A stretch of 64,000 bases of DNA from Escherichia coli (GTDB lineage: Bacteria; Pseudomonadota; Gammaproteobacteria; Enterobacterales; Enterobacteriaceae): NCBI RefSeq assembly GCF_030384885.1, contig NZ_CP128613.1; one strand, written 5' to 3'. The position numbers and the translations under genes were made by a program. This document shows positions 50,257 through 54,146 of this stretch, one piece after another (position 1 is the stretch's first letter; each line of letters opens with the position of its first letter). The notes under the pieces are model-generated. The model was given only the letters and a program-made list of their open reading frames with translations, was not told the DNA's origin and did not search any database.

Positions 50257-51690
50257 GTGACTTTCTTTGATTTCTGGGGAAAAACCCGACGTGGCGAGAA
50301 AGAGGGTGGCGACGATTATCACCTTCTTTGCTGGCATTCGCTGGATGTAGCCGCGATAGGCTATTTAATGGTCAAAAACAACTGTTTCGGGCTGGCTGAC
50401 TATTTTCGTCAATTAGGTTTCGCTGACACGGATCAGGCAGCACAATTTTTCGCCTGGTTGTTGTGCTGGCACGATACTGGAAAATTTGCCCGCTCATTTC
50501 AGCAACTTTACCTGCACCCACAACTCAAGGTTCCGGAAGGCGCAAGAAAGAATTACGAAAAGATCTCTCATTCAACGCTGGGTTACTGGTTGTGGCATCA
50601 TTATTTAATTGAATGTGAAGAGTTGCTTCCTTCATCTTCACTCTCTTTGCGCAAACTTAAACGAGTAATAGATATGTGGATGCCCGTGACGACCGGGCAT
50701 CATGGTCGGCCTCCTGACCGTATCGATGAACTGGACAACTTTCTGCCTGAAGACAAAGCTGCCGCACGGGATTTTCTCCTTGAAATCAAGGTACTGTTTC
50801 CGCTCATCGAGATCCCTACATTCTGGGATGATGACGAGGGCGTTGAACTTATAAAACATTTTTCCTGGTATATCTCTGCAACCGTCGTACTCGCAGACTG
50901 GACGGGATCGTCAACGCGGTTTTTTCCACGCGTTGCACAGGCAATGGATATTAAAGATTACTGGCAGAAGGCTTTAGTTCAGGCTCAAAACGCATTAACC
51001 GTCTTTCCCCCAAAAGCAGAAAGCGCGCCTTTCACTGGAATTAATACGCTGTTTCCTTTTATTGAGAACCCAACACCGTTACAGCAAAAGGTGTTGGATC
51101 TGGATATCAGCCAGCCAGGACCACAGTTGTTTATTCTGGAAGATGTGACTGGCGCAGGTAAAACAGAAGCGGCGCTTATCCTGGCGCACAGGTTGATGTC
51201 TGCGGGGAAAGCACAGGGTTTGTTTTTTGGTTTGCCAACAATGGCAACGGCCAATGCCATGTACGATAGGCTGGTAAAAACCTGGCTTGCTTTCTATTCG
51301 CCACAATCCCGCCCCAGCCTGGTGCTGGCACACAGCGCTCGTTCGCTAATGGATCGCTTTAACGCATCGCTGTGGTCTGGTGATTTTGTGGGGTCAGAAG
51401 AACCGGATGAACAAGCGTTCAGTCAGGGATGTGCGGCCTGGTTTGCTGACAGTAACAAGAAGGCGTTGCTGGCTGAAATTGGCGTCGGCACGCTGGATCA
51501 GGCGATGATGGCGGTGATGCCGTTCAAACATAATAATCTGCGGCTTCTGGGGCTGAGTAACAAAATCCTGCTAGCCGATGAGATCCACGCCTGTGACGCT
51601 TATATGTCGTGCATTCTTGAAGGGCTGATCGAGCGGCAGGCGCGTGGCGGAAACAGCGTTATTTTGCTTTCTGCTACGTTGCCGGGGTAG
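50257..51690 (+). pseudogene. cas3: cas3 (type I-E), 5' fragment: HD nuclease plus helicase motifs I-III, premature stop
   Basis: 477-aa ORF with Walker A (VTGAGKTEAA), DExH (LLADEIHACD) and SAT motifs, stopping right after SATLPG; full Cas3 is roughly 890 aa. The start codon is non-ATG (likely GTG); my own count places it at 50258, one nucleotide off the track. Confidence 0.85.
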
Positions 51691-51746
51691 GGATACGGCG
51701 TGATGACACCGAATGCTTAAACGCGTTTAATCGCCACTATTCACTG

Positions 51747-52304
51747 GTGGTTTGCGCCAGCCGTAACCCGCGCTGGGCACGGGATTATCACACGGTCCAG
51801 ATGCCAAAAGAGGTGCGTAAAGCGCGTTATTTCAGCCGTCGCGAAGAGTTGAGCGCCCCTGATCTTCTAAGCGCGATTATCTCCCGGCGCGACTACTACA
51901 CCGATGCCTGGTGGATGGTGGCCGTGGCAACAACAGCTGATGCGCCTTACAGCCTCGAACAGTTGCAGGAAGGTTTACGCCATCCGGTTTTTCCGCTTTA
52001 TCTGGGGCGAAAAAGCCATCCGCTGGCATTACCCCTTGCGCCGTTACTGCTTGAAGGTAACGCGTCTGATGCCTTACGTAACGCATACCAACAGTATCAG
52101 GATCGTTTCCACGAACTGAAAGTCTCACTCCCGAAACTTCAGGATGAATGCTGGTGGGAAGGGGAGCACGATGGCCTGGTCTCGAGCAAAATATTACGCC
52201 GCCGGGATGTTCCTTTAAATCGTCAGCAGTGGCTGTTTGGGGAACGCACCGTCAATCAGGGGCCGTGGCTCAGCAAGGAGGAACCATGTACCTCTCAAGA
52301 ATAA
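51747..52304 (+). pseudogene. casD: casD (cas5e) 3' remnant
   Basis: Frame contains RDYHTV ... PLYLGRKSHPLALPL, matching the C-terminal two-thirds of Cas5e as I recall it; no N-terminal region; its 3' end overlaps the casE start as in intact operons. Confidence 0.65.
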
Positions 52305-52936
52305 CCTTACATACCGGCCAGCTTTCGCCTGCGCAGTTACTGCATCTGGTGGATCGCGGTGAATATGTGATGCATCAGTGGCTGTGGGATCTTTTTCCTG
52401 GCGGCAAAGAAAGGCAATTTCTTTATCGTCGGGAAGAACTCCAGGGCGCGTTTCGCTTTTTTGTCCTGTCGCAGGAACGCCCGGCGGAAAGTGAAATGTT
52501 CACCATCGAATGCCGGTCATTTGCGCCGGAGCTGCGTACCGGACAATCCCTTTGTTTCAACCTGCGGGCGAATCCAACAGTCTGTAAAGCGGGTAAGCGC
52601 CACGATCTGCTGATGGAGGCGAAACGGCAGGTGAGGGGGCAGGCGGAAGGAAGTGATGTCTGGTTGCATCAACAACAGGCGGCGCTGGGCTGGCTGGCTG
52701 CGCAGGGAGAGAGAAGTGGTTTTACACTGCTGGATACCTCGGTCGATGCCTACCGACAACAGCAACTGCGGCGGGAAAATGCCCGGCAACTGATCCAGTT
52801 CAGTAGCGTGGATTATACGGGGATGCTGACGGTCACCGAGCCAGGGTTATTTCTGCAACGTCTCTGCCTGGGGTATGGCAAAAGCCGGGCGTTCGGCTGT
52901 GGTCTGATGTTAATCAAACCCGGAGCAGAGGCGTGA
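52286..52936 (+). CDS. casE: CRISPR pre-crRNA endoribonuclease Cas6e (CasE)
   Basis: ATG at about 52286 after AAGGAGG gives MYLSRITLHTGQLSPAQLLHLVDRG...GCGLMLIKP. Confidence 0.85.
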   Translation: MYLSRITLHTGQLSPAQLLHLVDRGEYVMHQWLWDLFPGGKERQFLYRREELQGAFRFFVLSQERPAESEMFTIECRSFAPELRTGQSLCFNLRANPTVCKAGKRHDLLMEAKRQVRGQAEGSDVWLHQQQAALGWLAAQGERSGFTLLDTSVDAYRQQQLRRENARQLIQFSSVDYTGMLTVTEPGLFLQRLCLGYGKSRAFGCGLMLIKPGAEA

Positions 52937-53856
52937 CGTTTGTACCACTGAGTCCGATCCCATTAAAAGATCGCACCTCCATGATCTTCCTCCAGTACGG
53001 TCAGATCGACGTACTGGATGGCGCTTTCGTGCTGATCGACAAAACAGGGATCCGCACGCATATTCCGGTGGGATCGGTCGCTTGCATAATGCTCGAACCA
53101 GGAACGAGAGTTTCCCACGCGGCGGTGCATCTGGCCGCCACGGTGGGGACACTGCTGGTCTGGGTCGGTGAAGCGGGCGTTCGCGTTTACTCCCCCGGAC
53201 AACCTGGAGGGGCGCGGGCAGATAAATTACTCTACCAGGCAAAGCTGGCTTTAACGGAAGATCTACGGTTGAAGGTGGTGCGCAAAATGTATGAATTACG
53301 TTTTCGTGAACCACCGCCAGCTCGCCGTTCAGTGGAGCAGCTACGGGGAATTGAGGGAGCCCGAGTACGCCAGACCTATGCATTACTGGCGAAGCAATAT
53401 GGTGTGAAATGGAATGGTCGCAACTACGATCCTAAAGACTGGGAAAAAGGCGATGTTGTGAATCGCTGCATCAGTGCTGCCACATCATGCCTGTACGGTA
53501 TATCTGAAGCGGCTGTATTAGCCGCGGGATATGCGCCCGCTATTGGTTTTATCCATAGTGGCAAACCGCTTTCATTTGTTTATGACATAGCCGATATCAT
53601 TAAATTTGATTTGGTTGTGCCAAAGGCATTTGAAATAGCGGCGAGGCAACCCGCAGAACCAGATAAAGAAGTCAGGTTGGCCTGTCGCGATATTTTCCGT
53701 AGCACTAAGTTAACGGGCAAATTAATCCCGTTAATTGAGGAAGTCCTTGCCGCCGGTGAAATTGAACCACCACAACCCGCGCCGGATATGTTACCGCCAG
53801 CTATCCCGGAACCTGAAACGCTGGGTGATAGTGGTCACCGGGGGCGCAGCGGATGA
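52933..53856 (+). CDS. cas1: CRISPR integrase Cas1 (type I-E)
   Basis: 307-aa [51 protein letters not shown]... Confidence 0.93.
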
Positions 53857-54146
53857 GCATGGTCGTGGTTGTTACAGAAAATGTCCCGCCGCGCTTACGT
53901 GGACGGCTCGCGATCTGGCTACTGGAAGTGCGTGCTGGTGTTTATGTTGGTGATACATCCAAACGTATTCGGGAGATGATCTGGCAGCAAATCCCCCAAC
54001 TGGCAGGTTGCGGAAATGTGGTCATGGCCTGGGCGACCAATACCGAGTCGGGTTTTGAATTTCAGACCTGGGGTGAAAACAGACGTATTCCGGTGGATTT
54101 GGATGGGTTACGGTTGGTTTCGTTTCTTCCTGTTGAGAATCAATAA
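53853..54146 (+). CDS. cas2: CRISPR-associated endoribonuclease Cas2
   Basis: 97-aa [37 protein letters not shown]...; overlaps the cas1 stop. Confidence 0.92.

Follow-up and report, generated by a model that had tools for sequence, protein, structure and literature searches.

A 4,630-bp deletion without an insertion sequence separates a decayed type I-E cas operon from its intact parent in Escherichia cryptic clade I

The window, by which we mean the whole 64-kb stretch of DNA analysed here, carries a type I-E CRISPR-Cas locus in the CRISPR-I position between cysH (with hok/sok) and iap; the gene order around the locus is cysJIH-hok/sok-cas-CRISPR-iap-cysDNC. The cas genes are those of the E1 variant, with which hok/sok is associated (PMC3903273), and the cas region shows 92-94% nucleotide identity to E1 operons (O157:H7, 042 and others). 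Five of the eight cas genes of the type I-E set are absent or truncated. The features of the locus and of the second array in the window are as follows.

32276 to 33219, plus strand: CRISPR-II array, 16 repeats and 15 spacers, flanked by queE and ygcE (repeat scan)
50257 to 51690, plus strand: cas3 remnant, 477 aa; native codons 1-475 (to 51681), then Pro-Gly-stop
51680 to 51681, no strand: deletion junction; 'TG' is common to both parental breakpoints (2-bp microhomology)
51682 to 52304, plus strand: cas5e (casD) remnant, codons 42-248 of 248, in a frame different from that of the cas3 stub
52286 to 52936, plus strand: cas6e (casE), intact, 216 aa (NCBIfam TIGR01907, full-length, E 5e-83)
52933 to 53856, plus strand: cas1e, intact, 307 aa (NCBIfam TIGR03638, 380 bits)
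53853 to 54146, plus strand: cas2e, intact, 97 aa (NCBIfam TIGR01873)
54147 to 54576, plus strand: leader and CRISPR-I array, 5 repeats at 54243-54515 and 4 spacers (repeat scan)

An initial annotation, made from the sequence of the window alone, had described a decayed I-E operon with cas3 cut after helicase motif III, and both profile matches and translation bear this out. The cas3 frame opens at a GTG with an AAGGA Shine-Dalgarno sequence 9 nt upstream and stops at 477 aa. Its last native codon is Leu475, immediately past the SAT motif, and the Pro-Gly-stop tail is cas5e DNA read in the wrong frame. The stub matches the NCBIfam Cas3 model PRK09694 over profile positions 6-481 of 878 with 261 bits, under the 569-bit cut-off, and the Cas3 HD domain at residues 24-219, and of the cas3_core helicase profile it covers no more than the first half (2-166 of 358). 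The motifs WHDTGKF (HD), GAGKT, DEIH and SAT can be read in the translation. Thus the HD nuclease and the RecA1 lobe with motifs I, II and III are kept, and RecA2 and the C-terminal domain are gone. Using tblastn, residues 1-475 of the 885 residues of the parental Cas3 were recovered in the window, which falls short of a full-length Cas3.

No fusion protein results, since the cas5e remnant is out of frame with the cas3 stub. The longest ORF of the remnant with a start codon runs from a GTG at 51747 to 52304 (185 aa) and begins 56 nt past the cas3 stop; gene callers place the start at the ATG at 51801 (167 aa). The proposal that the 51747 frame derives from Cas5e and lacks the N-terminal region was confirmed, since only profile positions 70-228 of 230 of the Cas5e model TIGR01868 are matched and residues 41-248 of the parental Cas5e are found by tblastn; a full-length Cas5e is not encoded here. 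Parental CasA, CasB and Cas7e gave no tblastn match anywhere in the 64-kb window, in line with the reported absence of cse1, cse2 and cas7, and their genes lie inside the deleted segment described below. The proteins of cas6e, cas1e and cas2e are 100% identical to the parental ones and give full-length profile matches above the cut-offs. Together with the repeat scan, these matches corroborate an earlier statement that the three genes are intact and accompanied by two arrays.

Both arrays are built of GAGTTCCCCGCGCCAGCGGGGATAAACCG-type 29-nt repeats and 32-nt spacers of the I-E type, with 16 and 5 repeats, and CRISPR features are found at both in the RefSeq annotation as well. The direct repeat scan recovered these 16 and 5 repeats; Tandem Repeats Finder gave only 2.5 copies for CRISPR-II. 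In CRISPR-I the five repeats are followed by an extra spacer, after which the array ends in a degenerate repeat at about 54548-54576, and a lone degenerate repeat lies beyond CRISPR-II at 33735-33763.

The closest complete chromosome to the window is that of E. coli 2013C-4282 (NZ_CP027579.1), a member of Escherichia cryptic clade I. The two are collinear and differ over 64 kb by 10 SNPs and no gaps, except for one clean deletion of 4,630 bp in the window. NZ_CP027579.1 is annotated with an intact operon in the order cas3-casA-casB-cas7e-cas5e-cas6e-cas1e-cas2e. Its cas3 carries a PGAP flag 'frameshifted', and we considered whether the gene was already dead in the parent; this was rejected, as the GTG start opens an uninterrupted frame of 885 aa. 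The upstream ATG behind the flag opens an ORF of merely 12 codons.

The missing segment corresponds to positions 4677679-4682308 of NZ_CP027579.1, where it is single-copy. It comprises cas3 codons 476-885, the cas3-casA spacer, casA/cse1, casB/cse2, cas7e and cas5e codons 1-41, and its length of 4,630 bp is not divisible by 3. Alignment with the intact operon, a check that the initial annotation had proposed, places the junction at 51680-51681. By blastn both flanks of the junction are 100% identical to the intact locus (L003) and overlap by two bases, the shared 'TG'; in the coordinates of L003 the breakpoints are 2679 and 7310. The alignment upholds the loss of the Cascade backbone by deletion and corrects its size, which had been given as roughly 4.4 kb. 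That figure had assumed about 6.4 kb from the cas3 start to the casE start; the parental distance is in fact 6,659 bp, as compared with 2,029 bp in the window.

As to whether related strains share these breakpoints, a question raised in the initial annotation, the junction occurs with 100% identity in at least five independent public datasets (GCA_036346665.1, ERR12948940, SRR34489103, SRR35948513 and SRR12517544) and in none of 5,426 complete RefSeq E. coli genomes. The exact 477-aa and 167-aa products are likewise present in public datasets at 100% identity. Its recurrence in several separate isolates and runs shows that the junction is inherited. The allele is rare, the truncated products being found in 8-9 contigs and the intact parental 885-aa Cas3 in 458 indexed blocks of the collection. 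Coverage counts give no clean fraction of degenerate E1 operons, because casA, cas1 and cas2 of K-12 (E2) cross-match.

IS-free deletions of a similar kind arose independently elsewhere, with breakpoints that differ from those in the window. The partial cas-E1 operon of the 042 type, found in 195 of the 5,426 complete genomes, sits in the same place (cysH-hok/sok ... iap) and is likewise of the cas-E1 variant. It also shares an IS-free internal deletion with an overlap of about 2 bp, a cas3 cut within the helicase, the loss of casA and casB, and intact cas6e, cas1e, cas2e and array. However, its breakpoints are at 2977 and 6292 of L003, its deletion measures about 3.3 kb, and it joins the 5' part of cas3 to the 3' part of cas7e, so that most of cas7e and the whole of cas5e are retained. 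Moreover, it is fixed in a large lineage, whereas the allele of the window is seen in a handful of isolates. In TUM12355, as in the window, the N-terminal part of cas3 adjoins a C-terminal remnant of cas5e, followed by intact cas6e-cas1e-cas2e. This is nevertheless an independent event (L003 breakpoints 3250 and 7355, overlap of about 4 bp) on an E. coli sensu stricto background with about 92% identity to the window, and it is represented by one complete genome only.

Partial cas-E operons in E. coli have already been described. 'Minor arrangements' of CRISPR-I/cas-E are on record for E. coli and Shigella, among them one in S. flexneri 301 in which cas3 is partly deleted (Almendros et al. 2014, PMC3903273). 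Uropathogenic E. coli carry incomplete I-E operons of 3, 5 or 6 genes, in which cas1, cas2 and cas3 are retained (Slukin et al. 2025, PMC12736100). These loci resemble the present one in that cas genes are truncated or deleted relative to an intact relative, here 2013C-4282, but most of them have been attributed to insertion sequences and the junction in the window is without IS. In the published cas-E descriptions that we searched, neither the present allele nor its clade I background was found. The deletion is a new allele and ordinary gene decay. With intact I-E systems (cas-E1 as in O157:H7, cas-E2 as in K-12) the window shares gene order, repeat and chromosomal position, and its retained genes are orthologous to theirs, at the nucleotide identity to E1 operons given above; unlike them, with five of eight genes absent or truncated, it cannot make the defining effector complex.

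From established type I-E biology and the gene content, Cascade would be unable to assemble, with Cse1, Cse2 and Cas7 absent and Cas5e truncated, and the Cas3 stub, deprived of RecA2 and the C-terminal domain, would be unable to unwind or degrade targets. Primed adaptation requires both Cascade and Cas3 (PMC10011333). With no Cascade and a disabled Cas3 stub, CRISPR interference and primed adaptation would thus be abolished in carriers. This expectation refers to the window and the closest complete genome; a second Cascade set may conceivably lie elsewhere, e.g. on a plasmid. Cutting of pre-crRNA by Cas6e could still take place, and naive spacer acquisition by Cas1-Cas2 would in principle still be possible.

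The initial annotation had spoken of a retained adaptation module. This holds for the genes, which are intact, but their presence alone does not show that adaptation function is kept, because so young a deletion would not yet show the effects of selection and because the casA-cas2 promoter of K-12 sits in the spacer corresponding to the one deleted here (PMC10011333). In K-12 this promoter, Pcas8e, drives the entire casA-cas2 operon (PMC10011333). A simple promoter scan of the E1 variant revealed no plus-strand consensus promoter in the deleted cas3-casA spacer, so that the downstream cas genes may or may not have lost their promoter with it. Expression of cas6e, cas1 and cas2 may now come from internal promoters or from transcripts that run on from the cas3 promoter. 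The promoter scan also placed a promoter-like site in the CRISPR-I leader at 54187-54214, with site numbers no higher than in shuffled sequence.

We consider it very probable that a single recent RecA-independent event of illegitimate recombination removed the 4,630 bp from the cas-E1 operon in a small clade I sub-lineage. Aligned to the intact parent, the junction is seamless and contains no inserted bases, neither an IS nor the end of one, and no target-site duplication, in accordance with the earlier observation that no IS is visible there. Neither direct repeats of at least 12 nt bridging the breakpoints nor palindromes at the junction were found. The lack of both an IS and a long repeat points to illegitimate recombination. 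The mechanism, previously called unexplained, thus appears to be ordinary: the junction would be of the slippage or end-joining type; its microhomology spans 2 bp, and no mobile element took part. By our own calculation about 16% of random junctions would show a 2-base microhomology by chance, so that the sequence does not name the repair pathway. The clone concerned belongs to Escherichia cryptic clade I; the event very probably took place in one of its sub-lineages, and the remaining members keep the intact operon. That the retained genes are intact is explained by the youth of the deletion and need not reflect selection on them.

Could selection nevertheless have favoured the loss? Loss of interference genes is a classic way out of self-targeting. 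A spacer matching the own genome, e.g. against a new prophage, might have made interference lethal, so that those cells survived which had lost Cascade and Cas3. Interference-gene deletions that spare cas1-cas2 do recur independently in E. coli. However, in the closest complete chromosome none of the 19 spacers has an exact match of at least 28 nt other than in the two arrays; this search used concatenated spacers and covered the parental chromosome only. Furthermore, H-NS normally keeps the I-E systems of E. coli silent (PMC10011333), which makes the pressure from self-targeting weak, and the carriers form a rare sub-lineage with no sign of a sweep. We regard escape from autoimmunity as improbable. 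A broader version takes together the IS-free origins, at least three in Escherichia (here, 042-type and TUM12355): as each deletion takes away the helicase half of cas3 and the Cascade backbone but leaves the 5' half of cas3 and cas6e-cas1-cas2 in place, they could reflect selection and not neutral decay, be it by repeated escape from self-targeting or through a Cascade-independent function of Cas1-Cas2 or Cas6e. To this we give an equally small chance; if it were true, the intact and deleted clade I strains would provide a natural isogenic test system.

Somewhat less likely still is that cas6e-cas1-cas2 and the arrays are maintained as an 'adaptation-only' or other non-immune module, functional and not decayed. 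The three genes are intact in the window, and annotation gives them as intact also in the deletion lineages of the 042 type and of TUM12355. On the other hand, identity of the retained genes to the parent at 100% and only 10 SNPs in the 64 kb of flanks leave no time for decay. Both arrays match their parental counterparts exactly, no spacer having been gained or lost since the split, and the sampled 042-type loci are nearly without diversity and so provide no test of purifying selection. Very little speaks for a mobile element, by adjacent deletion or by recombination between two IS copies, or for homologous recombination between repeats as the origin of the deletion: IS elements are credited with most minor cas-E arrangements (Almendros et al. 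2014, PMC3903273) and IS421 is present in the locus of some 042-type genomes, but the intact parent aligns seamlessly to the junction, the breakpoints have only 2 bp in common and no direct repeat of 12 nt or more bridges them. Finally, an artefact of assembly or sequencing, in which the organism has a complete operon and misassembly or collapse of the region produced the gap, is already essentially refuted, for although read support is not visible from one window and the PGAP flag in the closest complete genome might hint at an error-prone region, the loss amounts to 4.6 kb, the identical junction stands in at least five independently generated datasets or assemblies, the breakpoints have no repeats able to cause collapse, and the flag relates to the upstream ATG while the GTG-initiated cas3 ORF is unbroken.

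Members of the sub-lineage should be annotated as being without CRISPR interference, and their arrays taken as historical markers that can be used for typing and not as active immunity. The deletion strain and the intact sister clone form a natural near-isogenic pair in an stx1-positive clade I lineage, which could serve to gauge the cost, in fitness or gene flow, of losing Cascade and Cas3 in a normally silenced system. Beyond such bookkeeping the significance of the allele is little and its practical value modest.

The first whole-locus megablast ranked 042-type genomes as 'best', at 92.5% identity, and for a time the window looked like the 042 allele with more sequence lost. The discovery of the intact parent, with 100% identity, led us to reject this reading.

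The cas genes of the window lie in the classical Escherichia CRISPR-I neighbourhood, in the order cysJ, cysI, cysH, hok/sok, cas genes, short CRISPR array, iap, cysD, cysN, cysC. Five cas reading frames are recognised by NCBIfam profiles. Cas6e, Cas1e and Cas2e are each full length, while Cas3 and Cas5e are represented only in part:

32276-33219, CRISPR-II array, 16 repeats
49725-50017, hok/sok-type toxin-antitoxin locus between cysH and cas3
49725-49881, sok (Rfam match, 104 bits)
49865-50017, Hok ORF, 50 aa
50257-51690, ORF of the N-terminal half of cas3 (NCBIfam Cas3 profile positions 6-481 of 878)
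51747-52304, ORF of the C-terminal two-thirds of cas5e (NCBIfam Cas5e profile positions 70-228 of 230)
54243-54515, cas-adjacent array, 5 repeats and a degenerate terminal repeat
3' of the short CRISPR array, on the strand opposite to the cas genes, iap

In the Cas3 stub the HD domain is complete, but the helicase core is matched only up to position 166 of its 358-position profile; the HD, GAGKT, DEIH and SAT motifs of the stub are all readable in translation. The features listed in the initial annotation, i.e. the cas frames, these motifs and both arrays, were all recovered by profiles, translation and repeat analysis, and the profile match confirms that the 51747 frame is derived from Cas5e. 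E. coli type I-E operons comprise the common, hok/sok-linked variant E1 and the K-12 variant E2 (PMC3903273), and hok/sok next to the cas genes here agrees with the published link to E1.

Concerning the background, the 10-kb stretch upstream of the cas locus matches the 2013C-4282 chromosome (NZ_CP027579.1) at 100% identity, but its identity to nearly all other complete E. coli genomes is just 90-97.6%. A 10-kb housekeeping flank sample (40000-50000) reaches only 90-95% identity to most of them. Strain 2013C-4282 is stx1-positive and is listed under Escherichia cryptic clade I (PMC10100065). On sequence, the window is assigned to cryptic clade I rather than to E. coli sensu stricto, which accounts for the low flank identity.

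The operon of this parental strain is complete (cas3-casA-casB-cas7e-cas5e-cas6e-cas1e-cas2e). RefSeq/PGAP marks its cas3 as frameshifted, with the start at an upstream ATG (window 50214-50260, position 1212-1258 of the parental cas locus L003). This ATG opens a 12-codon ORF only. Since GTG 50257, with a good Shine-Dalgarno sequence (AAGGA) 9 nt upstream, opens an uninterrupted 885-aa cas3 frame, the pseudogene label probably arose as an artefact of annotation, and parental cas3 was probably functional.

Local blastn aligned window 49003-51681 with L003 1-2679 and window 51680-56000 with L003 7308-11628, both at 100% identity. Across all 64 kb, 10 substitutions and a single 4,630-bp gap, with no other gaps, separate the window from the parental chromosome. 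The deletion of the Cascade backbone, initially estimated at roughly 4.4 kb, is thereby supported and its breakpoints are exact. In the parent, the first falls between GCTACGTTG and TCTCAACAG and the second between GCTGGCTG and CCGGGGTAG; the window junction reads GCTACGTTGCCGGGGTAG. Lost are cas3 codons 476-885, the 97-nt cas3-casA spacer, casA, casB, cas7e and cas5e codons 1-41. Because 4,630 is not divisible by three, the cas3 frame runs into cas5e DNA as Pro-Gly-stop, and no cas3-cas5e fusion protein results. Against the intact parent the junction is seamless, without inserted bases, IS ends or target duplications, as the initial annotation had noted for IS elements. No direct repeats of at least 12 nt bridging the breakpoints were found. 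The two breakpoints share 'TG' only, and as by our calculation an overlap of at least 2 bp is expected at about 16% of random junctions, the shared bases are hardly informative on the pathway.

In a public assembly collection, 8 contigs encode exactly the 477-aa Cas3 stub, and 9 encode the Cas5e remnant of 167 aa that gene finders call. They derive from NCBI assembly GCA_036346665.1 (JAJLMA010000012.1, 362 kb) and the Logan assemblies ERR12948940, SRR34489103, SRR35948513 and SRR12517544. An assembly artefact is excluded, since every fetched carrier locus matches the window at 100% identity and contains the junction wherever it reaches that point; the window itself very probably belongs to this clone. 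The survey of other strains located the junction in at least five public datasets and in none of 5,426 complete RefSeq E. coli genomes. In the same collection, 458 indexed blocks contain the intact parental Cas3 of 885 aa; within a well-sampled clone, deletion carriers are therefore only a small minority.

No CasA, CasB or Cas7e homologues were detected within the 64-kb window; the deleted segment is present in one copy in the closest complete genome. By what is established for type I-E systems, loss of Cse1, Cse2 and Cas7 together with truncation of Cas5e would prevent Cascade assembly, and Cas3 without RecA2 and the C-terminal domain would be unable to translocate. CRISPR interference would hence be lost, and so would primed adaptation, which requires Cascade and Cas3 (PMC10011333). 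Pre-crRNA processing by Cas6e and naive acquisition by Cas1-Cas2 may in principle still be possible. In K-12, casA through cas2 are transcribed from a promoter within the cas3-casA spacer (PMC10011333); the window has lost the equivalent of this spacer. A simple scan, however, revealed no consensus plus-strand promoter in the cas3-casA spacer of the parental E1 variant. The sole candidate promoter upstream of the remaining genes lies before cas3 (50099-50126), and their expression after spacer loss is uncertain. For the cas5e remnant to yield a product, GTG 51747 or ATG 51801 would have to serve as start codon, and neither has an obvious ribosome-binding site before it.

The retained genes might be read as an adaptation-only module kept by selection. 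They are identical to the parental genes, and both arrays match the parent's base for base, so that the two lineages have diverged without gain or loss of spacers. It is thus the recency of the deletion, rather than any demonstrated selection, that accounts for the intact genes. Alternatively, a self-targeting spacer may have favoured loss of the interference genes as an escape from autoimmunity. However, when the 19 spacers were searched against complete genomes (exact matches of at least 28 nt, with the carrier's own prophages and plasmids outside this scope), matches in the parental chromosome fell only at the two arrays. Any spacer match was found in 880 genomes, and among the matches listed outside the parent genome all belong to spacer 32732-32763, which is also present in the arrays of further complete genomes, K-12 among them. 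The spacer sets (32305-33190, 54272-54486) are clone-specific, at least two adjacent spacers being common to no other complete E. coli genome.

Repeated decay of the type I-E system in Escherichia is already known. Minor cas-E arrangements with truncated or interrupted cas genes are mostly IS-associated (Almendros et al. 2014, PMC3903273), and in uropathogenic strains, operons reduced to 3, 5 or 6 genes but still containing cas1, cas2 and cas3 have been reported (PMC12736100). Among complete genomes we found independent alleles of the same kind as the window's. The 042-type loci have an IS-free internal cas3-cas7e deletion (parental positions 2977 and 6292, about 2 bp overlap), present in 195 complete E. 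coli genomes, whereas the IS-free cas3-cas5e junction of TUM12355 (3250 and 7355) occurs in one complete genome only. Each keeps the 5' half of cas3 and cas6e-cas1e-cas2e, as in the window, a pattern that may reflect selection or ascertainment. Sequence diversity is almost nil in the window's allele and in the sampled 042-type loci. In other partial states, some genomes cover just 53% or 24% of the operon. The window's deletion differs from most published cases only by the absence of IS and its clade I background. It is recent and of an ordinary sort, inactivates the interference genes, and adds a further allele to a class that is already well known.

Further observations concern other parts of the window. 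Downstream of the CRISPR-II array (33220-33763), about 500 bp of AT-rich DNA precede a fragment of the repeat 3' end (approximately 33690-33702) and a lone degenerate repeat (33735-33763); by its sequence, this region resembles what is left of an array, with a single repeat and a leader of its own. Between relA (21076-23310) and mazG (23405-24196) lies a 94-bp spacer (23311-23404) without mazEF, the toxin-antitoxin pair that occupies this position in K-12. Approximate MazE and MazF query sequences gave no significant tblastn match in the whole window. Genes with TPM domains and genes of the LemA family are clustered between eno and queE (27507-31093); one member is annotated as a truncated pseudogene in the near-identical reference, and one of the genes contains an 18-nt tandem repeat (27517-27551). 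In nlpD, a 24-nt unit is repeated in tandem in about 3.2 imperfect copies (69% matches; 63659-63734).
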